A stretch of 64,000 nucleotides of DNA. Source: Candidatus Binatia bacterium. GTDB taxonomy: Bacteria; Desulfobacterota; Binatia; UBA9968; JAJDTQ01. Made by a program: the position numbers and the translations under genes. Shown here in pieces: positions 47,235-64,000 of the stretch; position 1 is the first letter of the stretch; each line of letters opens with the position of its first letter. The stretch spans positions 1,120,001 to 1,184,000 of the forward strand of contig OY762897.2 in assembly GCA_963666515.2 (NCBI GenBank), read 5' to 3'. The notes under the pieces are model-generated. The model ran no database searches and was not told the DNA's origin. It saw nothing but the letters and a program-made list of their open reading frames with translations.

Positions 47235-48194
47235 ATGATGAAATCGGCCGATTTCGTCGAGGCCCGGCGGAGGCTCGAGGCCAAGCCCCAGTCCACCGGT
47301 GAAAAGCTCACCACCCTGTCCCATGCCGTCGAGAGGGTTCGGGACGGCGACCATATCGCCATAGGAGGGTGCCTCTTCTCGCGCAGCCCGTGGGCGGCCC
47401 TACTGGAGGTGTTGCGCCAGCAGAGACGCGGGCTGACCTTGTCACGCAACCTCATGTGCTACGAGGGCGAGCTGTTCATGGCGGCCAAGGCCGTGGACGG
47501 GCTGATGACGAGCTGGTTCGACATCGCCCTCCCCTGGGGCCTCTCCCTCAAGCTCCGCGAGGAGGTTGAAGCCGGACGGATACGTTTCGAGGAGTGGAGC
47601 CATCTGGGACTTGGACTTCGTTACCGCGCCGGGGCCATGGGCGTCCCGTTCCTGCCCACCCTGACCATGCTGGGGTCGGACCTGATGGGCGTGACCGATA
47701 CGAAGACCATGCAGTGCCCGTTCACGGGAGAGACGCTGTGCCTGGTGCCGGGCCTTTTCCCCGAGGTGGCGCTGCTCCACGTGCACCGGGCCGACCGCTT
47801 CGGCAATTGCCAGATCGACGGCTACCCGCACATGGACACGGACATCGCCAAGGCCGCGGCCACCGTGATCGTCACCGCGGAGGAGATCATCGACGAGGAG
47901 GAGGTCCGCCGACGGCCCGACCGCACCGTGATACCCGGGCTCGTGGTGGACGCGGTGGTGGAGGCCCCCTACGGGTCTTTCCCGCACGAATGCTACGGCC
48001 TGTACGAAGCCGACTTCGCCCACTTCGAGGCCTACACCGATGCCGTCAAGGCCCGCGGCACCGGCGCCGTCAACGACTATCTCGACCGCTACGTCTACGG
48101 CGTCTCCGGTCACGAGGAGTACCTGGCGTTGTTCGGCGACGAGGCGCTGGCGCGGCAGCGGCGGTGCGCCGAGGAGTTGCTGGGGCCGAGATGA
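47235..48194 (+). CDS. Family I CoA-transferase subunit A (GctA/PcaI-like)
   Basis: VRDGD.IAIGG, AGAMGVPFLP, HVHRADRFGN, VDAVVEAPYGSFP. Confidence 0.88.
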   Translation: MMKSADFVEARRRLEAKPQSTGEKLTTLSHAVERVRDGDHIAIGGCLFSRSPWAALLEVLRQQRRGLTLSRNLMCYEGELFMAAKAVDGLMTSWFDIALPWGLSLKLREEVEAGRIRFEEWSHLGLGLRYRAGAMGVPFLPTLTMLGSDLMGVTDTKTMQCPFTGETLCLVPGLFPEVALLHVHRADRFGNCQIDGYPHMDTDIAKAAATVIVTAEEIIDEEEVRRRPDRTVIPGLVVDAVVEAPYGSFPHECYGLYEADFAHFEAYTDAVKARGTGAVNDYLDRYVYGVSGHEEYLALFGDEALARQRRCAEELLGPR

Positions 48195-48952
48195 ACTACT
48201 CCGCCACCGAGTTGCTGGCCGTGGTGGCCGCCCGCCAGCTCGCGGGCGTGAGTTCGGTGTTCGCCGGCGTGGGCGTGCCGCTCGTGTCCGCGGTGCTGGC
48301 GCAGAAAACCCGCGCGCCCCAGCTCGTCATCGTGGTGGAAGGCGGCAGCATGGGGCCGCAGATGGTGCCGGGGCGGTTGCCGTACTCCACCAACGAGATG
48401 CGCACGGCGCCCAGGGCGCAGATGCTGCCGGGCATCACCGACACGTTCCTGTTCGCCCAGAGAGGGTTCCTCGACGTGGGGTTCGTGGGCGGCGCGCAGA
48501 TCGACTGCCACGGCAACCTCAACTCCAGCGTCATCGGCAGCTACGAGCGCCCCAAGGTGCGGCTGCCGGGCAGCGGCGGCGCCAACGACATCATCTCGCT
48601 GTGCCGCAAGGTGATGGTGGTGACCATGCACGAGCGGCGCCGGTTCGTGCCCCGGGTGGACTTCATCACCAGTCCGGGATTCCTCGAGGGCGGGGACTCG
48701 CGCCGCAAGGCGGGCCTCGTGTTCGGCACCGTCAGCCGCATCGTGACCCATCTGGGCACGCTCGCGTTCGACGACGAGACCAGGCGGCTGCGGCTGGAGA
48801 GCCTCCATCCTGGCGTCACCGTTCAGGAAGTGCTGGACAATACGGGGTTCGAGCTGCCCGTGCCCGATGACGTGCCTGTGACCGAGCCGCCCAGCGAGGA
48901 AGAGTTGGAAACCCTGCGGAGCATCGACCCGGAGAGGAATTTTCTCGGTTAG
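48191..48952 (+). CDS. Family I CoA-transferase subunit B (GctB/PcaJ-like)
   Basis: FAGVGVP, VVEGG (catalytic Glu), GGAQID.HGNLN, RLPGSGG.ND; ATGA overlap with subunit A. Confidence 0.88.
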   Translation: MNYSATELLAVVAARQLAGVSSVFAGVGVPLVSAVLAQKTRAPQLVIVVEGGSMGPQMVPGRLPYSTNEMRTAPRAQMLPGITDTFLFAQRGFLDVGFVGGAQIDCHGNLNSSVIGSYERPKVRLPGSGGANDIISLCRKVMVVTMHERRRFVPRVDFITSPGFLEGGDSRRKAGLVFGTVSRIVTHLGTLAFDDETRRLRLESLHPGVTVQEVLDNTGFELPVPDDVPVTEPPSEEELETLRSIDPERNFLG

Positions 48953-48980
48953 AGGGAAGAACACAAGGGAGCCTCATTTC

Positions 48981-49922
48981 ATGCCGGTACAGTTTGGAGT
49001 CGCCATTCGCAATTTCGTCGGTCCGGGCGAGACCCCGGACGTGGACGGGTTGATACGTTATTCCCGCCGCGCCGAGGAGCTGGGCTTCGAGTCGCTCTGG
49101 GCCTGGGACCACGTCCTCCTGGGGGTGGAACCGAGCTTCCCGGTGCTGGACTCGCTGACCATCCTCACGGCCATCGCCGCGCGCACCGAGCGCATCCGGC
49201 TGGGCACCGGGGTGATGGTGCTGCCGTTGCGCAACCCGGTGGTGACCGCCAAGGTGCTGGCCAGCCTGGACCAGATATCCAACGGGCGCCTGCTGCTGGG
49301 GGCGGCCTCGGGCTGGTACGCGCGGGAGTTCGACGCCGTCGGCATCTCCTTCAAGGACCGCGGCCGCATCTTCGAGCGCAACCTCGACCTGCTGGTGCGG
49401 CTGTGGACCGAGGACATGGTGACCGAGCAGGTGGACGAGCTGAACCTGCGGTCCGCGGTGCTCCTGCCCAAGCCGGTGCAGAAGCCCCATCCGCCCATCC
49501 TGATCGGAGGCTACATCAACCGCGTGCTGCGCCGCGCGGGTCAGAAGGGCGACGGCTGGCTCACTTACTTCTACACGCCGGAGGGTTTCTCCAAGAGCTG
49601 GGCCAGGGTCCTGGAGGCGGCGGAGAAGGCCGGGCGGGACCCGTCGAAGCTGACCGCCACCAACCAGCTCGCCATCTACGTGGGGCCCTCGAAAGAAGCG
49701 GCGGACGAGCCCATGCGCCACTGGCTGACCACCGAGTGGGACATCGCCAAGTGGAGCGACTCCACCATCGAGCACGCCATTCGCGGCACCGCGGACGAGT
49801 GCGTGGAGCAGCTCCAGGCCCACGTCGACGCCGGCGTCCACCGGATCATCCTGATCCCCTACCGGTACGAGCCGGAGCAGTTGGAGCTGATCGCCTCGGA
49901 GGTGATCCCCAGGCTGACCTGA
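48981..49922 (+). CDS. LLM-class (probably F420-dependent) oxidoreductase
   Basis: GFESLWAWDH, LDQISNGRL, PKPVQKPHPPILIGG. Confidence 0.88.
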   Translation: MPVQFGVAIRNFVGPGETPDVDGLIRYSRRAEELGFESLWAWDHVLLGVEPSFPVLDSLTILTAIAARTERIRLGTGVMVLPLRNPVVTAKVLASLDQISNGRLLLGAASGWYAREFDAVGISFKDRGRIFERNLDLLVRLWTEDMVTEQVDELNLRSAVLLPKPVQKPHPPILIGGYINRVLRRAGQKGDGWLTYFYTPEGFSKSWARVLEAAEKAGRDPSKLTATNQLAIYVGPSKEAADEPMRHWLTTEWDIAKWSDSTIEHAIRGTADECVEQLQAHVDAGVHRIILIPYRYEPEQLELIASEVIPRLT

Positions 49923-49935
49923 GGGGCGCGACGAC

Positions 49936-50835
49936 ATGCGGTTTGACTATTTCGAGCCGACGACGCTGGAGGAAGCCAGCGACCTGCTGCGGGAAGGGAA
50001 GGGCGCCCGCAAACCGCTTGCCGGCGGCACCGACATCGTCATACAGTTGCGCCGTCGCGCGGCCGGGGCCGAGGGTCTGGTGAACCTGAAGCGGATACCG
50101 GAGCTGTCAGGCTGGACCTGCGAACCCGGCGGCGGGCTTAGGCTCGGAGCCTGCACGCCCATGCGGGATCTGGAGACCTCGGCCGCGGTGGGCGAGCGGT
50201 TCCCCTCCATCGTCGAGGCGCTCCGGGTGGTGGGGTCGCTGCAGTTGAGGAACATCGCCAGCGTGGGCGGCAACCTGTGCAATGCCTCGCCGTCCGCGGA
50301 CACGGCGCCGCCGCTCATGGTCCTGGGGGCCGCGGCGAGCCTGCGGACCCCCGAAGCCCGGCGCGAGACCGTGCCGGTGGAGGGTTTCTTCGCAGGGCCG
50401 GGCGCGTCGGTGCTGGGCACGGGCGGGCTGCTGCTGGCGGTGGAGGTGCCGGAGCCGGCGCCGCGCTCGGGCGACGCCTTCGAGCGGTTCACGCCGCGCT
50501 CCGCCATGGACATCGCCATCGCCAGCGCCGCGGCCGCGGTGACGCTGGACGCGGCCGGTGGAAGGATCGAGGCGGTGCGCATCGCCCTGGGCGCGGTGGC
50601 GCCCACGCCGGTCCGGGCGTCCAAGGCCGAGGAGATGGTGCTGGGGAAGGAACCGGCCCCGAAACTCCTGGAGTGGGCCGGGGCCGCGGCCATGGAAGAA
50701 TGCCGCCCCATCGACGACATCCGCGGGTCCGCGGCCTACCGCAAGGAGCTGGTGCGGATCCTCGTTCAACGGGTATTGCGGCAGGCGGTGGAACGGGCCC
50801 GCGCCCGGGCAAACGGCGGGACGGAAACGGTATGA
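49936..50835 (+). CDS. Mo-hydroxylase FAD subunit (NdhF-like)
   Basis: LAGGTD, RNIASVGGNLCNASPSAD, PIDDIRGSA.YR. Confidence 0.92.
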   Translation: MRFDYFEPTTLEEASDLLREGKGARKPLAGGTDIVIQLRRRAAGAEGLVNLKRIPELSGWTCEPGGGLRLGACTPMRDLETSAAVGERFPSIVEALRVVGSLQLRNIASVGGNLCNASPSADTAPPLMVLGAAASLRTPEARRETVPVEGFFAGPGASVLGTGGLLLAVEVPEPAPRSGDAFERFTPRSAMDIAIASAAAAVTLDAAGGRIEAVRIALGAVAPTPVRASKAEEMVLGKEPAPKLLEWAGAAAMEECRPIDDIRGSAAYRKELVRILVQRVLRQAVERARARANGGTETV

Positions 50836-51311
50836 AACAGCGTTACGCTCTGCGGGTGAACGGCGGCGTGAGGGAAACGGAGGCGGAGCCCCACGAGTCC
50901 CTGCTGGACGTGCTGCGGGAGAACCTTCGGCTGACCGGCAGCAAGAAGGGCTGCAACGAGGCCGAGTGCGGCTCGTGCACGGTGTTGCTCGACGGCCGGC
51001 CGGTGGTGTCGTGCCTGGTGCTGGTTCCGGATGCCGTGGACCGGGAGATCGTCACCATCGAAGCCCTGGCCGGGGACGGCACACCGCATCCGGTGCAGCG
51101 GCAGATGGTGGAGCAGGGGGGCGTGCAGTGCGGCTACTGCACGCCGGGCATGATCATGAGCGCCTACGCGCTTCTCCAGGAAAACCCGGATCCCACGGAC
51201 GAGGAGATCCGCTTCGCCATTTCCGGCAACATCTGCCGCTGCACGGGCTACGGCAAGATCGTGAAGGCCGTGCGCGCGGCCGCGGAAGAGATGGGGAACG
51301 AGGGAACATGA
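50832..51311 (+). CDS. Mo-hydroxylase (2Fe-2S) subunit (NdhS-like)
   Basis: GCNEAECGSC, QCGYCTPG, NICRCTGY. Confidence 0.94.
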   Translation: MKQRYALRVNGGVRETEAEPHESLLDVLRENLRLTGSKKGCNEAECGSCTVLLDGRPVVSCLVLVPDAVDREIVTIEALAGDGTPHPVQRQMVEQGGVQCGYCTPGMIMSAYALLQENPDPTDEEIRFAISGNICRCTGYGKIVKAVRAAAEEMGNEGT

Positions 51312-52621
51312 GCGAGGATGCCTCTCAAGAGACGGCCGGCCCGTATCACTGGATCGGCAGGAACGTCACCAAGCCCGACGCGCTGGAGAAGGCCCTGGGC
51401 GCCACCGAGTACGTGGGCGACATGGTGGCGCCGGGCATGCTCCACGCCAAGATCCTGTGGGCCGGTATGCCCCACGCGGTGATCCGCAACATCGACACCC
51501 GGGAGGCCGCCCGGGTGCCGGGCGTGGCCGCGGTGCTCACGGCCGCGGACGTGCCCGGCACCAACCGCTACGGCCTCGCGGTGCTCGACCAGCGGGCGCT
51601 GGCGGACGACAAGGTGCGCTCCGCGGGCGACGCCCTGGCGCTGGTGGCCGCGGAAGACGAGGAGGCGGCCGAGGAGGCGGTGTCGAAGATCAAGGTGGAC
51701 CTGGAGCCGTTGCGCCCCATTCTCACCTACGAGGACGCCCTGGACCCCGACGCGCCTTCGGTCCACGACGGCGGCAACGTGTTCCAGCACACCACGGTGC
51801 GGAAGGGCGACCTGGAGAAAGGCATCCAGGAGTCCGACGTGATCGTGGAGAACGCCTACCACACCCACCGCATGGACCACGTGCCCATGGAGCCGGAGGC
51901 GGGGCTGGCCTACGTCGATCCCTCCGGGGTGCTCAACATCCTGGTGGGGACCCAGTACCCCTACCGGGACCGCCGGCAGATCGCGCCCGCCCTGGACCTG
52001 GCCATGAACAAGGTGCGGGTGATCCAGGCGCCCATCGGCGGCGGCTTCGGCCGCAAGGACGACATCACCGCGGAGATCCACGTGGGCCTGCTGGCCTTGA
52101 AGACGCGCCGGCCCGTGCGCTTGGTCTACACGCGTGAAGAGTCCCTCATCGCCAACACCAAGCGCCATCCCATGGCCATGAAGTTCCGCACCGGCGCCCG
52201 CTCGGACGGACGGCTGACCTTCCTGGACGGCGACATCTACGGCGACACCGGCGCGGGAATCTCCCTGGGGGCTTACGTGATCAAGAAGGCGGGCATCCAC
52301 GCCACCGGACCCTACGACGTGCCCAACATCCGGGTGGACACCTACACGCTCTACACCAACAACCTGGTCTCCGGGGCCATGCGCGGCTTCGGGGTGATGC
52401 AGGCGGCGGTGGCCCACGAATCGCAGATGGACCAGTTGGCCCATAAGCTCGGCATGTCGCCGCTGGAGTTCCGCATCAAGAACTGCCTCAAGCCGGGGCT
52501 GGCGTCCTCCACCGGGCAGTTGATGAACGAGGGTTGCGGCATCGAGGCGACGCTGCAGCGGATCAAGGAATACATGAGCGCGCACGACCTGCGCTTCAAG
52601 CGGTCTCAAGCGGCTTCGTGA
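51308..52621 (+). CDS. Mo-hydroxylase large molybdopterin subunit, N-terminal half (NdhL-like)
   Basis: GTQYP, IGGGFGRK, KRHP, TNN...AMRGFG; ends shortly after STGQ. Confidence 0.9.
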   Translation: MSEDASQETAGPYHWIGRNVTKPDALEKALGATEYVGDMVAPGMLHAKILWAGMPHAVIRNIDTREAARVPGVAAVLTAADVPGTNRYGLAVLDQRALADDKVRSAGDALALVAAEDEEAAEEAVSKIKVDLEPLRPILTYEDALDPDAPSVHDGGNVFQHTTVRKGDLEKGIQESDVIVENAYHTHRMDHVPMEPEAGLAYVDPSGVLNILVGTQYPYRDRRQIAPALDLAMNKVRVIQAPIGGGFGRKDDITAEIHVGLLALKTRRPVRLVYTREESLIANTKRHPMAMKFRTGARSDGRLTFLDGDIYGDTGAGISLGAYVIKKAGIHATGPYDVPNIRVDTYTLYTNNLVSGAMRGFGVMQAAVAHESQMDQLAHKLGMSPLEFRIKNCLKPGLASSTGQLMNEGCGIEATLQRIKEYMSAHDLRFKRSQAAS

Positions 52622-52641
52622 GTTCCGCGGGCTGGACGGCC

Positions 52642-53655
52642 ATGGCGATAAGAAAAGGCTTGGGCATCGGCTCCATGTACTACGGCATCGGCTACGGCTT
52701 CAGCCGGGCCGACATCGGCTCGGCCGAAATCGAGATGGCCGAGGACGGCACCACCACGGTCTACTCGGGGGCGTGCGACATGGGCCAGGGGGTCATGACC
52801 GTGGTGACCCAGGTGGCCGCAGAAGAGCTGGGCATCGAGCCCGAGCAGATACGGGTGGTGGCGGCCGATACCGGCAGTACGCCCGACGCCGGCCCCACCT
52901 CCGGGAGCCGCGCCACCTTCGTCCAGGGCGTTGCGGTGCAGAACGCGGCCCGGGAGCTGCGGGAGCAGATCCTGGACATGGCCTCGCGGATGCTGGAGTG
53001 TCCCAGGGAGAACCTCCACGTGCGGCGCGGCGAGGTCTGCGAGGTCGGCACCGACCGGCCCATGGTGTCGGTGGGCAAGGTGGCGCACCAGCTCCACTTC
53101 CACGGGCGGCGGGCCGCGGCCTGGGGCTGGCACGACAACACCACCGCGGACGTGGACCCGGAGACCTCCCAGGGCGACGCCTACGCTACCTACGGCTGGG
53201 CCACCCAGTTGGCGGAGGTGGAGGTGGACACCGAGACCGGACGCATCCGTCTCACCAAGCTGGTCTCCGCCACCGACGCCGGCAAGGCCATCAACCCGGT
53301 GGCGGTAGAGGGCCAGATCGAGGGCGGCGCCGCCATGGGCCTGGGCTACGGCCTCTACGAGCAGCACATCCTGGAGAACGGCGTGCCGCGCACCGCGTCG
53401 CTGGCGTTCTACCTGGTGCCCACGTCCATGGACGTGCCGGACATTGAGTGCGAGATCGTGGAGGTGCCCGATCCCAGGGGGCCGTTCGGCGCCAAGGGGG
53501 TGGCGGAGCCGGCCACCATCCCCACCACGCCGGCGATCCTGAACGCCATCTACGACGCCATCGGCATCCGCATCACCGAGACGCCCATCACCCCGGAGCG
53601 GGTCTTCTTCGCCATCCAGGAAGCCAAGGCCAGGGGCGAGTTCACCGACGACTGA
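52642..53655 (+). CDS. Mo-hydroxylase medium molybdopterin subunit, C-terminal half (NdhM-like)
   Basis: KGLGIGSMYYGIG, DMGQG, TSGSR, GQIEGG, GAKGVAEP; in-frame GTG at 52618 overlaps the upstream stop. Confidence 0.9.
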   Translation: MAIRKGLGIGSMYYGIGYGFSRADIGSAEIEMAEDGTTTVYSGACDMGQGVMTVVTQVAAEELGIEPEQIRVVAADTGSTPDAGPTSGSRATFVQGVAVQNAARELREQILDMASRMLECPRENLHVRRGEVCEVGTDRPMVSVGKVAHQLHFHGRRAAAWGWHDNTTADVDPETSQGDAYATYGWATQLAEVEVDTETGRIRLTKLVSATDAGKAINPVAVEGQIEGGAAMGLGYGLYEQHILENGVPRTASLAFYLVPTSMDVPDIECEIVEVPDPRGPFGAKGVAEPATIPTTPAILNAIYDAIGIRITETPITPERVFFAIQEAKARGEFTDD

Positions 53656-53680
53656 TTCGCTAAGCCAGGAGGCAGCCAAA

Positions 53681-54370
53681 TTGGGTAAACGGGTCGGACT
53701 GCTCATCCCCTCATCGAACACCGTCATGGAGGTGGACTTCTACCGCCACCTGCCGGACTCGGCCACGGTCCACACCGGGCGCATGTACATGGAGGCCACC
53801 ACGGTCAAGGGCGAGGAGGAGATGCTCGACGACCATTGCCTGCCCACCGCCGGCGATGTGGCCACGGCCAAGCCCGACCTGGTGGTGTTCGGCTGCACCA
53901 GCGCCGGGGCGCTCCGGGGCAACGCCTACGACGCGGATCTGTGCCGCCGCATCTCCGACGTGACCGGCAAGCCCACCGTCAGCGTCATCGAGTCGGTGCG
54001 GCGCAAGCTGATGTCTTTGGAGGTACAGCGGGTGGCGGTGCTGACGCCCTACATCGAGGACTTGAACGTCCGCATCAAGGCCAGCGTGGAGGACGACGGC
54101 ATCGAGGTGGTCTCGATCCACGGCATGGGCATCGACATAAACTTCAATCTCGCGCTGGTGGAGCCGCCGGAGATACTGGCCTTCGCCCGGGAGAAGCTGG
54201 GCCCGGACCCGCGGGCGGACGCGCTGTTCATCTCCTGCACCAACTACCAGGCCGTGGCGACGCTGCCGCGCCTGAAGGAGACCTACGACCTGCCCATCGT
54301 CACCAGCAACCAGGCCGCCCTCGAAGCCGTGGGCCGGGCGCTGGACCTGGAGCTGGTGGGCATGGGATGA
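53681..54370 (+). CDS. Maleate cis-trans isomerase / Asp-Glu racemase family protein
   Basis: GLLIPSSNTVME, FGCTS and ISCTN (both catalytic Cys), VTSNQA; TTG start after AGGAGG. Confidence 0.85.
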   Translation: MGKRVGLLIPSSNTVMEVDFYRHLPDSATVHTGRMYMEATTVKGEEEMLDDHCLPTAGDVATAKPDLVVFGCTSAGALRGNAYDADLCRRISDVTGKPTVSVIESVRRKLMSLEVQRVAVLTPYIEDLNVRIKASVEDDGIEVVSIHGMGIDINFNLALVEPPEILAFAREKLGPDPRADALFISCTNYQAVATLPRLKETYDLPIVTSNQAALEAVGRALDLELVGMG

Positions 54371-57645: not shown

Positions 57646-57664
57646 AGCGGTGAGCCGCTACGTA

Positions 57665-57765
57665 TCCGTCATTCCGGCGAAAGCCGGAATCCAGGAGCGG
57701 TGGGGATGGCCCCGCTGTGCTTCTCCGTCAATCCCCTGGATTCCGGCTTTCGCCGGAATGACGGA
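57665..57765. repeat. CGTC-family REP doublet with 31-bp inverted arms
   Basis: TCCGTCATTCCGGCGAAAGCCGGAATCCAGG ... CCTGGATTCCGGCTTTCGCCGGAATGACGGA. Confidence 0.88.
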
Positions 57766-57833
57766 TTCCGACTGTCCGGGTACGGTGCGACATGTCGCAC
57801 CGAGACCGATGACGGAAAGGTAAGGAGATTCGA

Positions 57834-59201
57834 GTGCCACAGGACTTGCAAAGTTTCTTGAAGCGATTGAAGGATGAGTGCCCGGAGCAGTTCCTCGACG
57901 TGAACGAGCCCGTGTCGCGGGAGTTCGAGGCCACGGCTCTGGTCATGGAGGCCGAGCGGCTGGCGTCGTGTCCGGCGGTGATGTTCCGAAACGTCTCCGG
58001 CAGCCAGTTCCCCATGGCGGCCAACGTGCTGGCCCACCGGCCGCGGCTGGCCTGGGCTTTCGGCGCATCGGAAGAACGACTGGTGCACGAGTTCAAGGAG
58101 CGTATCCAGCAGCCCGTGCCGCCCAAGGTATTCAAGGACGCACCCTTCCAGGAAAACAGCCTGCTGAACGAATCGGTGGACTTGGGGCAACTTCCGATCC
58201 TGACCCATTTCGAGCAGGACGGCGGCCCCTACGTGACCGCCGGGCTGGTGGTGGCGCGGGACCCGCAGTCCGGCATGAGCACGGTGGGCTTCCACCGGAT
58301 GCAGCTCAAGGGGCCGCGCAAGCTGGGAGTCAGCCTCCATTCCCGGCGCCGCATGTTCGAATATTTCCGCCGCGCCGAGGAAAAGGGCGAGTCCCTGGAG
58401 GCAGCGGTCTGCATCGGCGTGCACCCGCTGGTCTCCTTGGGGGCGTTGACGCTGCCGCCGGCCGGAATCGAGAAGTTCGCGCTCCAGGGCGGGCTTTTGG
58501 GAGAGCCGCTGGAGTTGGCGCACTGCGCCACCGTGGACGTCGACGTGCCGCGGTGGTCGGAGATCGTCATCGAAGGACGGATTCTCAAGGACGTGCGCGA
58601 GAAGGAGGGGCCGTTCGGCGAGTTCACCGGTTACGCCTCCAGCCGCAGCACCGAGAACGTCTTCGAGGCCACCGCGCTGCACTACCGCAACGGCGCCGTC
58701 TACCAGGACATCAACGGCGGCGACAGCATGGAGCATTGCCGCTGCCTGTCCATGCCCCGTGAAGTGGAGTTCACCAACGTGCTGGGCAAGACCATTCCCA
58801 ACCTCAAGGCGGTGCACGTGCCGGTGCGGTCGGGCATCGGCAGCTTCCACTGCTATGTCTCCATGCGCAAGACCGCGGAGGGGCAGGGGAAGCAGGCCAT
58901 CTTCAGCGTGCTGGGGGCCGACCACTACGTCAAGCTGGTGGTGGTGGTGGACAACGACGTCGACATCTTCGACGAGGAGCAGGTGTTGTGGGCCATCGCC
59001 ACCCGGATGCAGGCCAACCGGGACGTCATCATCGTGGACGAGGCCATGGGGACGCTGCTGGACCCGTCGGCCACCGACGCCATCACCGCGAAGATGGGCA
59101 TCGACGCCACCAAACCTTTGGGCGAGTTCGCTTCTACCCTTTCTATCGAGCCGGGCGCGGTGGAGCGCGCGCGTCGGCTCATGAGCAAGCTGACCGGATA
59201 G
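57834..59201 (+). CDS. UbiD family decarboxylase #3
   Basis: DGGPYVTAG, GFHRM, EGPFGEFTGY, WAIATRMQ, KMGIDAT; GTG start after AAGGAG. Confidence 0.92.
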   Translation: MPQDLQSFLKRLKDECPEQFLDVNEPVSREFEATALVMEAERLASCPAVMFRNVSGSQFPMAANVLAHRPRLAWAFGASEERLVHEFKERIQQPVPPKVFKDAPFQENSLLNESVDLGQLPILTHFEQDGGPYVTAGLVVARDPQSGMSTVGFHRMQLKGPRKLGVSLHSRRRMFEYFRRAEEKGESLEAAVCIGVHPLVSLGALTLPPAGIEKFALQGGLLGEPLELAHCATVDVDVPRWSEIVIEGRILKDVREKEGPFGEFTGYASSRSTENVFEATALHYRNGAVYQDINGGDSMEHCRCLSMPREVEFTNVLGKTIPNLKAVHVPVRSGIGSFHCYVSMRKTAEGQGKQAIFSVLGADHYVKLVVVVDNDVDIFDEEQVLWAIATRMQANRDVIIVDEAMGTLLDPSATDAITAKMGIDATKPLGEFASTLSIEPGAVERARRLMSKLTG

Positions 59202-59205
59202 CGGG

Positions 59206-60783
59206 ATGGAGAGCTTCCGGACTTTTCTGGACGATCTGCGGAACGCCGGCCAACTGGTTGACATACGCAAACCGGTCGATGTCCGGCATATCGCGGCGCT
59301 GGTGGACCAAGCTTCGACCGCGCTGCTGTTTCACAGGGTGCGCGGCTACGACTTGCCGGTCGTGTCGGGTCTGTTGAACGACCGGACGCGGATCGCGCTG
59401 TCGGCGGGCTGTGACTACTCGCAGATGGAGCAACGGCTCAGCCATGCCCTCGACCATCCCATTAATCCTGTTGAAGTCAGCGATGACGGTGCGCGGAGCT
59501 GGTATCGGGAAGGGGCCGCCGTGGACCTCTTCGACCTGCCGGTGCCGGTCTTCTCCGAGTTCGATGGCGGTCCTACCATTACCGCGGGCGTTACCCTTGC
59601 CCTCGACCCGGAGCACGGCCTCAACGCCGGCACCTATCGCTTCCAGGTCAAGGAAAGGGCGCTCACCGGCATCGACATCGTCACGCCCAACAACCTGCGC
59701 AGGCTGGCGGAGAAGGCACTGGCGGCCAACGCGCGGCTGCCCATCTCCATCAATATCGGCACGCACCCGCTGGAGTTGATGGCGTCGCTCTACAAGGCGC
59801 CCCTGGGCCGGAACGAGCTGGGGATCGCCGGCGGCATGATGGGGCGGCCGGTACGCCTCGGCGCTTGCAGGACAATCGACGTGCCCTGTCTGGCGGACGC
59901 CGAGATCGTACTGGAGGCGGAGATCCTGCCCACGGGCTGGACCCGCCAGGAGGGACGGTTCGGGGAGATGACGCGCCTCATGGGCGACGTGCACTACAAC
60001 CCGCATGTGCGGGTCAAGGCGATCTCGCGCCGCGAAGACGCCGTCTACTACGCGCTGCACATGCCTTGGGAGAACATCTGGATCAAGGAGCACGGCTTCC
60101 AGGCGGTGCTCAAGCGGGTGCTGGACGCAGCCGGGGTAACCGCGACCGCGGTGAACGTCACGCCCGGAGGCTGCTGCCATTGGCACGCGATCATCGCCAT
60201 CCGAAAGCAGCCGGGCGACCCCCAGAACGCCATCATGGCGGCGTTGTCGGTGGCGGACCTCAAGCACGTGGTGATCGTGGACGACGACATCGACGTCTAC
60301 GACGCCATGGAGGTGGAATGGGCCATGGCCACCCGGGTGCAGGCCGACCGGGACATCACCATCCTCTCTGATGCCCGCTCCAAGCCGCTGGACCCCAGCC
60401 TGCCCCTGTCGGACGGCATTCCCACCACGGCCAAGTGCGGTATCGACGCGACGATTCCCGACGGCGTCCCGAAGGCACGTTATCAGCGCATCACCTACCC
60501 CTACGCGGATGAGCTGGACCTTGCCAGTTATCTCGGCGCGACGAGCGCCGGCGAGGAGACCCACGGCATGGACGGCAGCGGAGAAGCCGCCGACCTTGGC
60601 GTCACCGTAACGCGGGTTCGCGATTTGCTGGCGGTGCGGGCGATGTACTTCAGCGAGATCGCACAAGGCGTCCCCGGGGCCGATTTCCAGTCCGTCGCTC
60701 GTGCCATGGGCGAACTCCACGCGGCTGAGGAGATCGATCAGGACGCCGAGGGGCGATACCGGCTCGCCGCTGGCGTCCCGTAG
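59206..60783 (+). CDS. UbiD family decarboxylase #4 with C-terminal extension
   Basis: DGGP.ITAG, GTYRF, EGRFGEM, VDDDID, LDPS, GIDAT, plus an extra C-terminal domain of about 60 aa. Confidence 0.9.
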   Translation: MESFRTFLDDLRNAGQLVDIRKPVDVRHIAALVDQASTALLFHRVRGYDLPVVSGLLNDRTRIALSAGCDYSQMEQRLSHALDHPINPVEVSDDGARSWYREGAAVDLFDLPVPVFSEFDGGPTITAGVTLALDPEHGLNAGTYRFQVKERALTGIDIVTPNNLRRLAEKALAANARLPISINIGTHPLELMASLYKAPLGRNELGIAGGMMGRPVRLGACRTIDVPCLADAEIVLEAEILPTGWTRQEGRFGEMTRLMGDVHYNPHVRVKAISRREDAVYYALHMPWENIWIKEHGFQAVLKRVLDAAGVTATAVNVTPGGCCHWHAIIAIRKQPGDPQNAIMAALSVADLKHVVIVDDDIDVYDAMEVEWAMATRVQADRDITILSDARSKPLDPSLPLSDGIPTTAKCGIDATIPDGVPKARYQRITYPYADELDLASYLGATSAGEETHGMDGSGEAADLGVTVTRVRDLLAVRAMYFSEIAQGVPGADFQSVARAMGELHAAEEIDQDAEGRYRLAAGVP

Positions 60784-61018: not shown

Positions 61019-61047
61019 TTGACAGCGTTCATGGGCTGGGATAACAG
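61019..61047 (+). promoter_or_regulatory. Sigma70-like promoter upstream of the amidohydrolase-OCD genes
   Basis: TTGACA-N17-TAACAG, followed by an AAGGAG RBS. Confidence 0.45.
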
Positions 61048-61076
61048 CCTGTGAGTCGAAAGGAGAGGGATTGTCC

Positions 61077-62165
61077 ATGCCCACCATCAACGACGCGGAC
61101 GGCCACATCAACGACTACTTCTTTGGCGAAGAGATCGCCAAATACATGCCCCAAGGGAACCAGTTCAGCCAGTTGTTCCCGGTGTTCGACCACCTCCATT
61201 TTCGTTACCTGATGAAGAACCGCGTGCCCAAGTACGTGGGTGGCAGCATGAAGACCGCTCCGGGACCGGAGGAATGGCTGGAGTTCATCGACGAGACCGG
61301 CATCGCCTGGAGCGTGCTCTACCCCAGCGCCGGCCTGGGGGTAGGCCGCATCGTCTCGGTGGAGTGGGCCATCGCCGCCTGCCGGGCCTACAACAACTGG
61401 CTGCACGACCGATTCACCAGTACCACCCCTCGCCTCAAGGGCGTGGGGCTCATCCCGATACAGGACGAGGAGGAGGCGGTGGTGGAGTTGCGGCGTTGCG
61501 TCCGGGAACTGGGCATGGTGGGCGCCATGCTGCCGTCCAACGGCGAGGGCATCAAGGGCCACCTGGGAGCCAAGGCGTACTGGCCCATCTACGAGGAGGC
61601 GGAGAAGCTCGGCTGCTGCCTCACCGTGCACGGCGGCGCGCACCATCATCTCGGTCTCGATGGCTTCAGTGTCTACTACCCGGTGCACGCGCTGGGCCAT
61701 CCTTTCGGGATCATGGTGCAGGCCGCGGCGATGCTGAGCCACGGCATCTTCGAGCGCTTCCCCGGGCTGCGGGTGGCCTTCCTCGAAGGGGGCGCCACCT
61801 GGGTGCCGTTCTTCATGGACCGGCTGGACCGCTCCTACAATGAAGGGCACCTGCAGATCGACCTGTCGGGCAATCCGGTGCCCGGTCCCGGGCCGGGCGA
61901 GAAGGCCAGCGAGCACTTCAAACGCCACGTGCGAGAGGGAAGGCTCTTCGTGGGTTTCGATTGCGACGACGCCGGGCTCGCCTTCGCGGTGCAGCAGGCT
62001 GGCGCCGAGCCTTTCCTCTTCGCCAGTGACTTTCCTCACGAGGTTTTCGACGCGGCGTCGTGCCGGCACGAGATCGACGAACTGCTACAGCGGGACGACC
62101 TGACCCGGGAGCAGAAGGAGGCGGTGCTGGGCGGTAACGCGGCGCGGCTGTACGGGCTCGGTTAG
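61077..62165 (+). CDS. Amidohydrolase_2 family protein
   Basis: DADGH, RAYNNWL, TVHGG, FLEGG, ASDFPH, GGNAARLYG. Confidence 0.88.
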   Translation: MPTINDADGHINDYFFGEEIAKYMPQGNQFSQLFPVFDHLHFRYLMKNRVPKYVGGSMKTAPGPEEWLEFIDETGIAWSVLYPSAGLGVGRIVSVEWAIAACRAYNNWLHDRFTSTTPRLKGVGLIPIQDEEEAVVELRRCVRELGMVGAMLPSNGEGIKGHLGAKAYWPIYEEAEKLGCCLTVHGGAHHHLGLDGFSVYYPVHALGHPFGIMVQAAAMLSHGIFERFPGLRVAFLEGGATWVPFFMDRLDRSYNEGHLQIDLSGNPVPGPGPGEKASEHFKRHVREGRLFVGFDCDDAGLAFAVQQAGAEPFLFASDFPHEVFDAASCRHEIDELLQRDDLTREQKEAVLGGNAARLYGLG

Positions 62166-62181
62166 GAGAATCACGGCAAGG

Positions 62182-62208
62182 GTAGGGGCGACCGCCGGTC
62201 GCCCCTAC
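62182..62208. repeat. GTAG-family REP, single copy
   Basis: GTAGGGGCGACCGCCGGTCGCCCCTAC. Confidence 0.8.
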
Positions 62209-62250
62209 GGCGAACCACCACAACATGGACTGCCAGGGAATTCGGGTATC

Positions 62251-63243
62251 ATGCTCTTTCTGACTGAAGCAGACGTTCTCCAGGCCATCGAAGGCCGTAG
62301 CGCCTACGCGGAAGCGGTGGCGGTCATCGAGGAGGTGCTGCGCCAGCAGTCCGAGGGCAGCACGTTCCACCTCAAGCGCCTCACCATGGAGCATCCCGAC
62401 CACCCGGGACACCTCTGGCACAACATCCGCATCCTGCCGGGCATGGCGCCGGAGCTGGGGTACGCGGCGGTGCGGGTCTATTCGGGATACCAGGGGACGA
62501 ACCGCTCGGAAGTCATCTGCCTGTTCAACTGGGAAGACATGGAGATGTCGGCGATCATCTCCGACTACCATCTGCACGCCATCCGCACCGCGTCTCCCTA
62601 CGGCGTGGCGGCCAAGTACCTGGCGCGGGAGAACGCGCAGACCCTGGGGGTCATCGGCACCGGACGGTACGCCAAGGGTTTCGTGCAGGCGTGCTGCGCG
62701 GTGCGCGACATCCGGCACATCAAGGCCTACAGCCGGAGCGCGGACAACCGTCGCCGTTTCCGCGAGGAGATGACCGCGGTCCTGGGCATCGAGGTGGTGA
62801 CGGTGGAGTCCGGCCGGGAAGCCGTCGAAGGCACGGACATCATGCTGCTGGCCACCTCCGGCAACACCATCGTGTTCGAGGGGGACTGGCTGGAGCCCGG
62901 AGCGCTGGTCATGTCGCTGGCCCCCGGCGAGTTCGACGAGGCCACAGTGCTGGGGTCACGGGTTTTTCTGTCCGGAACCGACCAAGTGCTGGGTGATTCG
63001 CCGCCCCGGAAACCCTTCCCGTCGCTGCTGGCCGGCGGCAGGTTCTCGAAGGACGACGTGGCGGCCGAGTTCTGTGACGTAGTTTCGGGAAAGAAGCCCG
63101 GACGCTTGAGCGACGACGAGGTGATCCTCTACGAGTCCCCGGGCATGGGCATCCTGGACGTGGGGGTAGCGAGTTGGGTCTACCGGCTGGCCGGGGAAAA
63201 GGGTCTGGGAACCGAGCTGCCCTTCGGAGAAGAAGCAACTTAG
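62251..63243 (+). CDS. Ornithine cyclodeaminase / mu-crystallin family protein
   Basis: IRTA, GVIGTGRYA, YSRS, LATS, YESPGMGILD, GLGTEL. Confidence 0.88.
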   Translation: MLFLTEADVLQAIEGRSAYAEAVAVIEEVLRQQSEGSTFHLKRLTMEHPDHPGHLWHNIRILPGMAPELGYAAVRVYSGYQGTNRSEVICLFNWEDMEMSAIISDYHLHAIRTASPYGVAAKYLARENAQTLGVIGTGRYAKGFVQACCAVRDIRHIKAYSRSADNRRRFREEMTAVLGIEVVTVESGREAVEGTDIMLLATSGNTIVFEGDWLEPGALVMSLAPGEFDEATVLGSRVFLSGTDQVLGDSPPRKPFPSLLAGGRFSKDDVAAEFCDVVSGKKPGRLSDDEVILYESPGMGILDVGVASWVYRLAGEKGLGTELPFGEEAT

Positions 63244-63256
63244 GGGATCTCTGGTC

Positions 63257-63382
63257 AATGGCGTCCTTCGACTTCGCTTCGCTACGCTCAGGACGAACGG
63301 TTGGCTGCAACTCCGATGAACCCATATCCGTTCGTCCTGAGCGTAGCGGAGCGCCAGCGAAGCGAAGTCGAAGGACGCCATT
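63257..63382. repeat. Long inverted-repeat element (CCGTTCGTCCTGAGC family doublet)
   Basis: Left arm 63257-63300 is the reverse complement of 63328-63382 apart from a short insertion in the right arm. Confidence 0.85.
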
Positions 63383-63400
63383 TTTAGGCGGAGGCGTGAC

Positions 63401-64000
63401 ATGCGTACGTTGATTCGCGGCGGTTGGGTCGTCGGCTATCAGGGGGAGAATCATGCGCTCCTGCGGGACGGGGTGGTGGTGTTCGAGGACGGGCGCATCC
63501 TGCACGTGGGAACGGGCTTCGACGGCAACGTGGACAGCGAGATCGACGCCCGCGGGATGCTGGTGGCGCCGGGCTTCATCGACATGCACGTTCACGGCGG
63601 CCACCGGGCGTCGCACCGGCTGATCACCGACATCGGCCGGCCGGACTACTTCGGCCAGCCGTTCCTGGAGATCAGCGTGCCGCGGGAGGGCAAGCGCCCG
63701 ACCGGCGATCCCCGCTACACCAGGCCCGACCAGGCCGGCGCCAGCGAAGGCACCGACCTGCACGCCACCTTCACGGTGGCCGACCTGTTGCGGAACGGCG
63801 TCACCACGTTCATGGAGATCGGCAGCCAGCTCCGGGTCCAGGAGGGACTGCTCAAGGAAGTGGACCGGCTCGGCGCCCGGGCCTACCTGGGACCGGGGTT
63901 CGATTCGGGCCGCTGGGTGGCGGACGACAAGGGCCGGCTCAAGCGGGCTCTGGACGAGGCCGCGGGGTGGCGCGAGTTCGAGGGCGCCGTCGGCTTCATC
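63401..64000 (+). CDS. Metal-dependent amidohydrolase (chlorohydrolase/deaminase-like), 3' end outside window
   Basis: GGAGG RBS; MRTLIRGGWVV...APGFIDMHVH...LRNGVTT. Not in the ORF track because it has no stop in the window. Confidence 0.85.
   Translation, partial: MRTLIRGGWVVGYQGENHALLRDGVVVFEDGRILHVGTGFDGNVDSEIDARGMLVAPGFIDMHVHGGHRASHRLITDIGRPDYFGQPFLEISVPREGKRPTGDPRYTRPDQAGASEGTDLHATFTVADLLRNGVTTFMEIGSQLRVQEGLLKEVDRLGARAYLGPGFDSGRWVADDKGRLKRALDEAAGWREFEGAVGFI

Follow-up and report, generated by a model that had tools for sequence, protein, structure and literature searches.

There are very few N-heterocycles whose degradation without oxygen has been worked out in molecular detail; nicotinate is one of them and urate, since 2025, another. 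The nicotinate cluster of E. barkeri encodes NdhFSLM, 6-hydroxynicotinate reductase and enamidase, followed by a B12-dependent branch; for Azorhizobium, steps of decarboxylation, glutarate formation and succinyl-CoA transfer were reportedly described by Kitts in 1992. In the hydroxymethylfurfural (HMF)/furoate pathway, Koopman et al. are said to have described, in 2010, the decarboxylase HmfFG, the ligase HmfD, the furoyl-CoA dehydrogenase HmfABC and HmfE. According to PMC9304392, the E. barkeri/Azorhizobium nicotinate route proceeds through partial ring saturation to tetrahydro-6-oxonicotinate and subsequent hydrolytic C–N opening. The reductive urate route described by Li et al. in 2025 (PMC12507026) involves XdhD-YgfM, YgfK or the PydA-like UacX, SsnA, HyuA, UacY/YgeW, YgeY and YgeX and ends in a diaminopropionate (DAP) ammonia-lyase after ring amidohydrolases and decarbamoylases, with a putative F420-dependent luciferase-family enzyme (PF00296) replacing the reductase in Chloroflexota urate neighborhoods. 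The present analysis concerns a cluster of sixteen plus-strand genes at the right end of a 64,000-nucleotide stretch of DNA from Candidatus Binatia bacterium (4.66-Mb contig OY762897.2, positions 1,120,001–1,184,000, G+C 64–71%; hereafter the window). The cluster resembles these systems in part and is probably a catabolic operon for the oxygen-independent breakdown of an N-heteroaromatic, possibly S-heteroaromatic, carboxylic acid.

Results

Gene Content Compared with Described Pathways

Profile searches of the cluster proteins against Pfam and NCBIfam found every one of the sixteen families named in the original prediction, all encoded on the plus strand (Table 1). They comprise a two-subunit CoA-transferase of the Gct type (CoAT_A and CoAT_B), an F420-type luciferase-like monooxygenase-family (LLM) oxidoreductase, a four-subunit Mo-hydroxylase (FAD subunit, FeS subunit and the two halves L and M of a large subunit), a two-Cys racemase-like protein, a DUF6282 protein, CysK-like and ThrC-like pyridoxal phosphate (PLP) enzymes, two UbiD-family decarboxylases (UbiD1 and UbiD2), an Amidohydro_2 protein, an ornithine cyclodeaminase (OCD)/mu-crystallin family protein and a last amidohydrolase.

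The cluster shares with nicotinate fermentation a Mo-hydroxylase that has four subunits, a split large subunit and the F-S-L-M order. The first half of the large subunit (open reading frame (ORF) of 437 aa) ends at a stop at 52621 and the second (337 aa) begins 21 nt further on, at the ATG at 52642; the same split was present in the loci of the genus and in Moorella. Subunit sizes, split and order agree with the organization of the E. barkeri nicotinate dehydrogenase (NDH), and the best PDB match of the NdhL-like half was the 425-aa chain 3HRD_A of this enzyme (384.6 bits, runner-up 201 bits). The substrate is not fixed by this match, given that 2,8-dioxopurine dehydrogenase is reported to group nearest the Se-dependent nicotinate dehydrogenases (bioRxiv 10.1101/2025.04.24.650524). 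Water-dependent hydroxylation, partial ring reduction and hydrolytic C–N opening, in this sequence (PMC9304392), would also be common to both systems. The cluster differs in its reductase, which is the LLM with a CoA-transferase or, in other lineages, a PreA-like protein, in its putative ring hydrolase, which is DUF6282, and in the addition of racemase-like and PLP enzymes. No enamidase was recognized, as DUF6282 had no PDB match and a PDB search with residues 1–200 of the last amidohydrolase retrieved only chains of dihydroorotase and of the AtzC type, which was uninformative. No Pfam family of the B12-dependent 2-methyleneglutarate mutase or of the later isomerase, dehydratase and lyase was detected in the sixteen genes or their flanks. 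A selD gene with one in-frame TGA, probably coding for a selenocysteine-containing selenophosphate synthetase, lies elsewhere in the genome (4,043,412–4,044,335, minus strand), and a model search of the 98%-complete genome gave no match to YqeB, the marker of Se-dependent Mo-hydroxylases.

The reductive urate pathway (PMC12507026) follows the same logic, in which a Mo enzyme comes first, a flavin-type ring reductase second, a cyclic amidohydrolase third and a PLP lyase last, and PreA/PydA-like reductases, a D-aminoacylase-like hydrolase and DAP ammonia-lyase occur in variants of the cluster in other bacteria. A xanthine dehydrogenase (XDH)-family Mo enzyme paired with a ring reductase, as in urate clusters, was found as well, with the LLM as the reductase. 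In contrast, DUF6282, the racemase-like protein, the CoA-transferase and the UbiDs do not belong to the route in the text consulted. HyuA, YgeW/YqeA and YgeY were absent from the window, and no Pfam match to OTCase, carbamate kinase or M20 was obtained for the sixteen genes. The view that the combination has no described parallel has to be given up, as the 2025 pathway has a like order of steps; its marker enzymes are nevertheless missing here.

UbiD decarboxylation, a CoA ester and Mo-hydroxylation connect the cluster with the HMF/furoate pathway, and both UbiDs were nearest to PDB entry 6H6V, the furan-2,5-dicarboxylate decarboxylase HmfF. The cluster differs in having a CoA-transferase in the place of the AMP-forming ligase and an NDH-like, split Mo enzyme, and adds a reductase, a racemase, DUF6282 and PLP enzymes. 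Neither an adjacent UbiX (HmfG) nor an AMP-forming HmfD nor a crotonase-type HmfE was found in the cluster by Pfam; the single UbiX copy of the genome is located at 2.22 Mb, outside the cluster. In the comparison with the aerobic nic cluster (NicAB, NicC, NicX, NicD, NicF and NicE), Pfam detected no oxygenase family. It is therefore unlikely that the two-Cys protein serves as the maleate isomerase of aerobic nicotinate catabolism, as had been proposed: no NicC- or NicX-type oxygenase is present, and the protein always occurs beside a ring reductase and DUF6282, like hydantoin racemase beside hydantoinase. Hydantoin modules, made up of hydantoin racemase, hydantoinase and carbamoylase, likewise pair a racemase-superfamily enzyme with a cyclic amidohydrolase, of a different hydrolase family.

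The top NCBIfam names of three cluster proteins included EutA, EutB and EutC of ectoine degradation, with scores far from the equivalog cut-offs (88 versus 318, below 64 versus 413, and 104 versus 472 bits, respectively). The same was true for SbnA and SbnB of L-2,3-diaminopropionate synthesis (203 versus 350 and 103 versus 327 bits). Targeted literature searches for heterocycle intermediates and enzyme combinations found no matching cluster, and no mention of these families was found in the Binatota genome paper. The cluster has the reaction order and several families of the urate and nicotinate routes and lacks the defining markers of both.

Conservation and Selection within the Genus

The DUF6282 protein was searched for in 40 relatives, i.e., 24 other species of the genus and 16 genomes of other genera from the same order. 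An orthologue of 94–99% identity was present in 23 of the 24 species, the remaining one having only a 31% paralogue, and no match above 38% was obtained in the 16 genomes of other genera. Regions of 20 kb were then compared for 16 of these 23 species and for four matches from outside the genus. Gene order was the same in all 16 genus regions, 12 of which also included miaA, and the four others showed no cluster context. In three loci (L034, L045 and L047), the left half was partly or wholly missing within the stretch compared. At the right-hand side, UbiD2 was missing in five regions, Amidohydro_2 was missing in five and partial in one, and the last amidohydrolase was missing in five; the OCD gene was present in 14, with one of the two gaps coinciding with the end of the compared stretch.

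The median protein identity within the genus was 96% for DUF6282, 94% for CoAT_A and 94% for the C-terminal half of the large Mo subunit, compared with 75% for MiaA. Rates of synonymous (dS) and nonsynonymous (dN) substitution were estimated by the Nei-Gojobori method against up to 16 species, with mutL, miaA and pheA as flanking references. Median dS values of 0.33–0.63 for the cluster genes were similar to those of the flanks (0.43–0.54), so recent spread within the genus was rejected as the cause of the high protein identity. The dN/dS ratio amounted to 0.05–0.17 in 15 of the 16 genes (0.055 for DUF6282) and 0.22 in the gene of the FAD subunit, compared with 0.14–0.28 in the flanks, and was as low in the accessory genes (0.05–0.12) as in the core. 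Given the common order of all 16 regions, a dS like that of the flanks and a low dN/dS, the cluster is an old, constrained unit that was present in the ancestor of the genus and on which purifying selection of unusual strength acts. Synteny, the first check recommended together with the original prediction, thus revealed a conserved core, and the genes were not scattered among the species of the genus.

Near-identical DNA was present in four sequencing runs of one study, and smaller shares were found mostly in sponge-metagenome runs. Four runs were aligned to the locus at a likeness of at least 85%. Contigs of a close relative from sponge metagenome X5 (about 93–97% identity) had the same order between 46000 and 62631, with three short gaps. 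In the sponge metatranscriptome assembly X19, pieces about 87–95% identical covered CoAT_A, FeS/L, M, CysK, ThrC, UbiD1 and Amidohydro_2, and one spanned the junction of M and the racemase-like gene. Metatranscriptomic data, in which co-expression was to be sought, have thus yielded gene pieces of relatives in one sponge library, and such contigs do not prove transcription.

Distribution of the Core and Its Variants among Phyla

A pattern scan of 185,579 species genomes with an alignment of four DUF6282 sequences resulted in 104 confirmed loci, and the best 80 were analyzed by tblastn with proteins of the window and of variant loci. This set consisted of 23 loci of the genus (at least 94% DUF6282 identity, labeled 'Candidatus Binatia' or with an older name, e.g., Deltaproteobacteria) and 57 outside it; taxonomy was taken from the record labels. 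The large Mo subunit was present in 61 loci, the racemase-like gene in 62, both together in 57 and any PALP enzyme in 55. Among the 32 non-genus loci covering the full 20 kb, the racemase-like gene was found in 28, Mo in 26, PALP in 21, a reductase in 20 and CoA-transferase in 17, and the four without the racemase-like gene were L117 and three with a DUF6282 identity below 45%. The cross-phylum core consists of the CoA-transferase pair, LLM, the four-subunit Mo-hydroxylase, the two-Cys racemase-like protein and DUF6282, usually with a PALP enzyme, and it recurs in at least four phyla. The preserved order, the cross-phylum core and the strong purifying selection together support the earlier view that the cluster is a functional unit and not a chance assembly.

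Carriers in Chloroflexota belonged to Dehalococcoidia, Anaerolineae and Chloroflexia (DUF6282 identity 65–82%), those in Actinomycetota included many metagenome-assembled genomes (MAGs) of Streptosporangiaceae, Acidimicrobiales and the cultured Saccharopolyspora elongata, and those in Bacillota were Moorella naiadis, a Moorellaceae isolate and Peptococcaceae MAGs. In loci L072–L079, the core proteins of Chloroflexota and of a groundwater 'Deltaproteobacteria' MAG were 61–82% identical to the Binatia ones. Such identity is far above expectation between phyla, which suggests lateral transfer of the cluster. In the 45–58% group, mostly Actinomycetota, the Mo subunits were 28–57% identical to the Binatia ones, compared with 43–67% for CoA-transferase, LLM, the racemase-like protein and DUF6282.

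The genes at the right-hand side behaved differently from the core. Outside the genus, OCD and the PRK06151 amidohydrolase were found in none of the 57 loci, UbiD in four, UbiD2 in three and Amidohydro_2 as two weak matches (27–28%); UbiD1 orthologues with 74–76% identity were located behind ThrC in L076, L078 and L079. UbiD2, Amidohydro_2, OCD and the PRK06151 amidohydrolase are genus-specific accessory additions, which may broaden the substrate range or handle side products. The idea that all sixteen genes make up one conserved pathway did not survive this comparison. The logic of the hybrid route once suggested fits the families, namely the HmfF-like UbiDs and the Mo enzyme nearest to nicotinate dehydrogenase, and the original outline holds for the most part, except for the maleate isomerase role, the unity of the sixteen genes and the promoter.

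Several variant loci carried further genes. In the Tissierellales MAG (L092), the order was D-aminoacylase-like amidohydrolase, DAP ammonia-lyase (597 bits versus a cut-off of 532), racemase-like, PreA-like, RidA and DUF6282. S. elongata (L116) had a DAP-lyase-type enzyme between the Mo genes and DUF6282 (349 bits versus 276), and homologues of 56–61% identity occurred in six further loci, giving 8 of 80 in total. A PucR-family regulator was matched in 22 of the 80 loci; in 18 of the 19 that were not of the Moorella type, it started at most about 350 bases past the end of DUF6282, and in L093 it was located about 6 kb downstream. NCS1 nucleobase-type permeases were present in 7 of the 80 loci, and the Moorella locus encoded a Bmp-type binding protein, an ATP-binding cassette ATPase and two BPD_transp_2 permeases. 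The 11.5-kb contig of L052 combined three UbiD genes with Mo-hydroxylase, DUF6282, an aspartate-aminotransferase-like enzyme and a TAXI-type binding protein. Because of the DAP lyase, RidA, PucR, NCS1 and the uptake systems, the variants point to a nucleobase-like N-heterocycle whose opened ring would be a beta-substituted alanine.

CoA-Transferase and Ring Reductase

The best PDB match of CoAT_A was glutaconate CoA-transferase (1POI_A, 146 bits), and CoAT_B has Glu50 within VVEGG, presumably the place of the catalytic Glu in GctB. Gct-type transferases act on 2-hydroxyglutarate and glutaconate; the family also includes non-transferases, such as the decarboxylase AibAB and the ring hydrolase IpdAB, and structures of both were listed among the PDB matches of CoAT_A. 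The identity of CoAT_A was 89–97% in 20 of the 23 genus loci and 64–65% in three Dehalococcoidia loci, with a median of 54% in the 45–58% group (22 loci). For CoAT_B, 88–96% was noted in 21 of the 23 genus loci and 54–61% in 21 of the 42 loci of the 45–58% group.

CofD and CofH, scoring above the model cut-offs, are encoded in the genome. Among the 80 DUF6282 loci, LLM was found in 42 and a PreA-like gene in 8, never together. CoA-transferase was present in 46 loci, accompanied by LLM in 40 and by a PreA-like gene in none, so that 40 of the 42 LLM-bearing loci also had it. In loci of the Bacillota type, a DHO_dh protein with two 4Fe-4S motifs was encoded between the racemase-like gene and DUF6282; its top NCBIfam name was PreA (287 bits versus a cut-off of 335). 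The PreA-like reductase stands in for LLM and CoA-transferase in Bacillota.

Racemase-like Protein and DUF6282

PDB matches of the racemase-like protein were near equal for arylmalonate decarboxylase (59 bits) and maleate isomerase (54 bits). The motifs (F/Y)(G/A)CTSAG near residue 72 and SCTN(F/Y) near residue 186 were kept in 12 of 12 aligned homologues, in agreement with the two-Cys description given earlier. With both catalytic-type cysteines kept, a racemase or isomerase seems more plausible for this protein than a decarboxylase.

DUF6282 gave no match to PDB sequences at E ≤ 0.1. Its AlphaFold model (predicted local distance difference test score 95.1, predicted template modeling (TM) score 0.93) has the predicted fold of an amidohydrolase-superfamily barrel, and Foldseek retrieved only distant triosephosphate isomerase (TIM)-barrel hydrolases (TM 0.44–0.64, 10–17% identity). 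These neighbors were the dipeptidase-like (renal-dipeptidase-type) 2I5G, phosphotriesterase (PTE)-like lactonases, dihydroorotase and a putative 2-pyrone-4,6-dicarboxylate hydrolase. Residues D11, H13, H15, K45, H47, H161, H186 and D246 were invariant in 25 homologues. A search of 1.84 billion proteins at E ≤ 0.001 gave 2,819 cluster representatives of the family, and no mention of it was found in the searched literature; a look-up in the ESM Atlas returned other DUF6282 clusters only. Two longer proteins, P0047 and P0004, also contain DUF6282, in one case fused to a full thiamine-diphosphate (TPP) enzyme (883 aa) and in the other duplicated in tandem (723 aa), and in L097, a separate TPP enzyme is located 3.5 kb from DUF6282. 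Use of the long fusions as Rosetta-stone evidence was rejected, one duplication and one TPP fusion being too thin.

PLP Enzymes and Paralogous Neighborhoods

All 23 genus loci had the CysK-like gene together with the core, and as a pair with the ThrC-like gene it also accompanied the core in 7 of 7 loci of the 79–82% group and in the differently ordered L086. Neither is the housekeeping copy, an option rejected on account of better-scoring genes elsewhere in the genome: another cysK scored 437 bits, and the ThrC-like protein ranked only fifth among the matches to the thrC model, four of them scoring better. Its best PDB matches were threonine synthases (195 bits). The best thrC-model match (282 bits) belongs to a module of ThiF, ThrC-like, ThiS-like and CysM-like genes at 906,212–909,690 of the genome (L136:6212–9690), which looks like the sulfur-carrier-protein route to cysteine/homocysteine.

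Every NCBIfam equivalog match of the OCD protein was below its cut-off, and the last amidohydrolase matched NF004801 with 559 bits versus a cut-off of 416. In the whole genome, tblastn gave at least 12 matches each for the Mo-hydroxylase subunits, UbiD, Amidohydro_2, OCD and LLM; with paralogue families of this size, a symbiont of 4.7 Mb is unusually committed to the chemistry of heteroaromatic/aromatic acids. A second neighborhood about 50 kb upstream (genome 1,107,217–1,123,825; L135:3217–14732 and window 281–3825) encodes OCD, PrpF, a ThrC-like PALP enzyme, DUF72, UbiD, an AMP-ligase and a Mo-hydroxylase large subunit, which suggests a recurring theme of UbiD, ThrC-like, OCD and Mo-hydroxylase in this organism.

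Borders, Gene Models and Spacers

The cluster had been estimated at about 17 kb. Its co-orientation was confirmed, and the unit extends over about 17.7 kb between miaA and pheA, with the stop of the last amidohydrolase at window-equivalent position 64888, about 888 bases beyond the window end. The surroundings consist of housekeeping genes, with mutL-miaA as the left border and pheA-hisC (aminotransferase)-tyrA-aroA-cmk-rpsA and later mutS at the right. About 1.2 kb with ORFs on both strands and no Pfam match (L009:1889–3100, window-equivalent 64889–66100) separate the last amidohydrolase from the chorismate-mutase domain of pheA. In the left flank, two long plus-strand ORFs lacking a Pfam match (38961–41273 and 42108–44465; 770 and 785 aa) may be high-GC artefacts, the second overlapping a minus-strand gene for a protein with a bifunctional-nuclease domain and PDZ (43542–44390).

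ATGA start/stop overlaps were found in CoAT_A/B, MoFAD/FeS and FeS/L, and these three gene pairs are translationally coupled. The ORF 48040–48870 was rejected as CoAT_B, being in the wrong frame and without a Pfam match; the true gene is 48191–48952. The starts of the FeS gene and of the N-terminal half of the large subunit, ATG 50832 and ATG 51308, each overlap the preceding stop. The CysK-like start was set to ATG 55371, as 27 extra N-terminal codons overlap a repeat element that includes 55299–55324, and the start of Amidohydro_2 was set to ATG 61077.

The spacer between UbiD2 and Amidohydro_2 had been proposed to hold a promoter separating at least two transcription units. A perfect -35 hexamer is present there with a weak -10, and a sigma-70 consensus scan of 46000–64000 found 0 sites (average of 1.5 in shuffled sequences), which leaves the promoter and the claim of two units unproven; the junction differs between species and in the sponge-metagenome contig of a relative (X5 record 21). 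Palindromic repeats resembling repetitive extragenic palindromic/miniature inverted-repeat transposable elements (REP/MITE) lie in four spacers of the operon (63257–63382, 57664–57766, 55299–55324 and about 62190). In run X1, the assembly depth over the repeat at 57664–57766 reached 31,700 as compared with about 80 in neighboring bins (about 400-fold), and the repeat at 63257–63382 has about 50 further genome sites, mostly on both strands (83 listed matches), with 67–100% identity.

Table 1. Genes of the cluster and features of its spacers, in window coordinates.
Feature	Position	Strand	Supporting data
CoA-transferase subunit A, GctA type	47235..48194	+	CoA_trans 92.6 bits; alternative start GTG 47229
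CoA-transferase subunit B	48191..48952	+	CoA_trans 89.8 bits; ATGA overlap with CoAT_A stop
F420-type LLM oxidoreductase, proposed ring C=C reductase	48981..49922	+	Bac_luciferase; TIGR03619 208.2 bits, cut-off 166.9
Mo-hydroxylase FAD subunit (MoFAD), NdhF/XdhB-like	49936..50835	+	FAD_binding_5, CO_deh_flav_C
Mo-hydroxylase 2x[2Fe-2S] subunit (FeS)	50832..51311	+	Fer2, Fer2_2
Mo-hydroxylase large subunit, N-terminal half (L), NdhL-like	51308..52621	+	Ald_Xan_dh_C, MoCoBD_1
Mo-hydroxylase large subunit, C-terminal half (M), NdhM size/position	52642..53655	+	MoCoBD_2 258.8 bits
Two-Cys Asp/Glu/hydantoin-racemase-superfamily protein (Amdase/maleate isomerase family)	53681..54370	+	Amdase 88 bits
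DUF6282, amidohydrolase-superfamily metal hydrolase, proposed ring opener	54384..55256	+	Pfam DUF6282 (PF19799) 226 bits
CysK-like PLP enzyme, paralogue	55371..56405	+	PALP; TIGR01139 356.5 bits, cut-off 350.95
ThrC-like PLP enzyme, N-terminal Cys-rich stretch	56416..57645	+	PALP 260 bits; TIGR00260 176.6, cut-off 167.1
Palindrome with perfect 32-nt arms, high-copy repeat	57664..57766	.	ThrC–UbiD1 spacer
UbiD-family decarboxylase 1	57834..59201	+	UbiD_N, UbiD, UbiD_C; PDB 6H6V 302 bits; EGPFGE at residue 258
UbiD-family decarboxylase 2, accessory	59206..60783	+	PDB 6H6V 277 bits; EGRFGE at residue 249
TTGACA-17 nt-TAACAG, candidate promoter of the original prediction	61019..61053	+	293-nt UbiD2–Amidohydro_2 spacer
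Amidohydro_2 protein (decarboxylase/hydratase-type), accessory	61077..62165	+	Pfam 98.7 bits; PDB PtmU3, ACMSD 74–80 bits
Ornithine cyclodeaminase/mu-crystallin family protein, accessory	62251..63243	+	OCD_Mu_crystall 152 bits
Palindromic repeat, about 125 bp	63257..63382	.	OCD–amidohydrolase spacer
'Chlorohydrolase' family PRK06151 amidohydrolase, 495 aa, accessory	63401..64000, on to 64888	+	Amidohydro_1/3; full length L009:401–1888

Discussion

A scheme of six steps can be proposed for the cluster, in which every catalytic assignment and the order of the reactions are predictions; what the data show are gene content, synteny, selection, fold and nearest relatives. In an accessory first step, one or both HmfF-like UbiDs would take a carboxyl group off a dicarboxylate precursor. 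The NDH-like Mo-hydroxylase would then add an oxo group, derived from water, beside the ring heteroatom, giving a lactam-type ring. The Gct-like CoA-transferase would form a CoA thioester, which would let the F420-type LLM reduce the ring C=C bond conjugated with the carboxyl; in Bacillota, a PreA-like (dihydropyrimidine/dihydroorotate dehydrogenase-like) Fe-S flavoenzyme would reduce the free acid instead. The new stereocenter beside the carboxyl would be inverted or set by the two-Cys racemase-like enzyme, in the manner of hydantoin racemase, and the ring would be opened by DUF6282 as a metal-dependent TIM-barrel hydrolase. In the last step, PLP enzymes would strip the heteroatom from a beta- or gamma-substituted amino acid, i.e., the CysK-like and ThrC-like proteins here and DAP ammonia-lyase in some Actinomycetota and the Tissierellales MAG. 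The genome has neither DAP lyase nor SsnA above the cut-offs, so that the role of the lyase must fall to the CysK-like and ThrC-like proteins if the chemistry is the same here.

By rough estimate, the foremost candidate for the substrate, itself no better than possible, is an azole or azine carboxylate with an N-C(COOH)-C-N(S) unit, of the imidazole-, thiazole- or pyrazine-carboxylate type. A nicotinate-type pyridine carboxylate and a carboxylate of the furan/pyrrole/thiophene-2-carboxylate type are each less likely, some other compound is a little less likely still and a purine is the least likely of all.

Several observations weigh against a catabolic operon of this kind. The CysK-like and ThrC-like proteins pass the cut-offs of biosynthetic enzymes and could be sulfur-amino-acid paralogues carried along, and a module of ThiF, ThrC, ThiS and CysM is present elsewhere in the genome. 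Neither a regulator nor a transporter was found among the cluster genes. No decarbamoylase is obvious in the window and no YgeX-type DAP ammonia-lyase over the cut-off was found in the genome; for SsnA (TIGR03314/IPR017700), the marker chosen in the urate study, the best match of the genome had 180 bits versus a cut-off of 455.5, and the cluster amidohydrolase had 83–85 bits (cut-offs 444 and 455.5). CoA activation by the Gct-like protein is not certain, as the family has non-transferases. The division between LLM with CoA-transferase and the PreA-like reductase tracks lineage (Actinomycetota, Chloroflexota and Binatia versus Bacillota) and may reflect ancestry, not mechanism. Since the Mo identity in the 45–58% group is below that of CoA-transferase, LLM, the racemase-like protein and DUF6282, the hydroxylase may have been recruited separately there. 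The X19 contigs are a weak hint of expression, as they were assembled from relatives in one library and DNA carry-over is possible.

Other explanations differ in what they leave unaccounted for. An unlikely one, which still deserves to be named before the rest, would be a nicotinate-type route in which quinolinate or another pyridine dicarboxylate is converted by UbiD to nicotinate and by the Mo enzyme to 6-hydroxynicotinate, CoA-transferase and LLM lead to the level of tetrahydro-6-oxonicotinate, DUF6282 takes the part of a non-homologous enamidase yielding ammonia and 2-formylglutarate, and the Gct-like transferase feeds glutarate to beta-oxidation, as in Azorhizobium caulinodans. The score with E. 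barkeri NdhL, the L/M split, the subunit sizes and the F-S-L-M order agree with it, a glutaconate-type CoA-transferase suits C5 dicarboxylates, and hydroxylation, partial reduction and C–N opening follow the logic published in PMC9304392. Such a route, however, leaves the PALP enzymes (55 of 80 loci), DAP ammonia-lyase (8 loci), NCS1 and PucR unexplained, and has no B12 mutase (by Pfam) or enamidase homologue in the cluster; the NDH match does not fix the substrate. A reductive variant of purine degradation, starting from uric acid or 2,8-dioxopurine, appears improbable; here, LLM would replace YgfK/UacX, DUF6282 and the racemase would replace HyuA/SsnA, and PRK06151 would be an SsnA analogue. 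The order of enzyme types is the same, luciferase-family enzymes stand beside SsnA in Chloroflexota according to PMC12507026, PucR is common, and L092 has UacX-like, UacY-like (Amidohydro_3) and YgeX-type genes around DUF6282. Nevertheless, the low SsnA scores, the missing DAP lyase and the lack of a carbamoyltransferase, a carbamate kinase and M20 in the window argue against it, and the CoA-transferase and the UbiDs would have no role for a carboxyl-free purine. Improbable as that is, a biosynthetic cluster for a diaminopropionate-type amino acid, a cofactor or a pigment precursor seems far more so. CysK-like together with OCD resembles SbnA/SbnB, transporter and regulator are missing and the conservation amid housekeeping genes is extreme, but the SbnA/SbnB scores are far below the cut-offs and markers of catabolism occur in the variants (DAP ammonia-lyase, RidA, PucR and uptake systems). 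To our knowledge, all Mo-hydroxylases of this family are catabolic, which also counts against biosynthesis.

The UbiDs and the right-hand genes bear on two further possibilities, both of which we consider rather unlikely. According to one, five-membered mono-heteroaromatic 2-carboxylates (furan, pyrrole, thiophene) are degraded: a 2,5-dicarboxylate would be decarboxylated, converted to the CoA ester, hydroxylated at C5, reduced, racemized at C2 and opened to 2-hydroxy-, 2-amino- or 2-mercaptoglutarate, with sulfide fixed by the CysK-like/ThrC-like enzymes. The 6H6V matches of both UbiDs, the likeness of CoAT_A to glutaconate CoA-transferase with 2-hydroxyglutarate and glutaconate as typical Gct substrates, the lactonase- and 2-pyrone-4,6-dicarboxylate hydrolase-like fold of DUF6282, the gene set of L052 and the CysK-like score above the cysteine synthase cut-off fit this chemistry. 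On the other side, DAP lyase, NCS1 and PucR of the variants point to diaza rings, UbiD accompanies only 4 of the 57 non-genus cores and L052 comprises only 11.5 kb. The second possibility is a composite locus, in which only the genes from CoA-transferase to DUF6282 form one pathway, the CysK-like and ThrC-like genes are sulfur-amino-acid paralogues and both UbiDs and the genes to their right come from one or more other pathways, placed in a conserved housekeeping region. UbiD2, Amidohydro_2 and the last amidohydrolase are indeed variable in the genus and absent outside it apart from a few matches, and the longest spacers and the repeats fall exactly at these junctions. With at least 12 genome matches each for UbiD, Amidohydro_2, OCD and Mo-hydroxylase, chance adjacency is easier. 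The second UbiD, ThrC-like, OCD and Mo-hydroxylase neighborhood 50 kb upstream can be read both ways, as recurrence of the same families there argues for a functional link between them. Against a composite origin, the CysK-like and ThrC-like genes also accompany the core outside the phylum and in the reordered L086, UbiD1 follows ThrC in three non-genus loci, and the accessory genes are as constrained as the core.

Within the catabolic reading, we tentatively propose that DUF6282, the two-Cys racemase-like protein and the ring reductase form an unrecognized, widespread ring-opening module for reduced heterocyclic carboxylates, which may be tuned in each lineage to the heteroatom, with DAP lyase serving diaza rings and CysK/ThrC recovering ring S or N directly in the form of amino acids. 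Sponge-associated Binatia and Chloroflexota might keep the module constitutively, as a core trait, to feed on heteroaromatic acids from the host or the community, e.g., azole or pyrrole carboxylates of sponge natural products, through F420-dependent heteroaroyl-CoA reduction, of which we know no description.

If the proposed function is true, the cluster would be a third solution to oxygen-independent N-heterocycle breakdown, built on the unstudied hydrolase family DUF6282, and would give the F420-type LLM and the Gct-type CoA-transferase a defined job in ring reduction. The mutual exclusion of LLM/CoA-transferase and the PreA-like reductase is a natural experiment on how a weak acceptor of hydride is activated by cells. 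With Saccharopolyspora elongata and Moorella naiadis, two carriers are in culture in which the question can be tested directly. Few gene sets of this sponge-symbiont genus are as constrained as the cluster, so the compound that it degrades probably is an important, as yet unnamed, currency of sponge holobionts.

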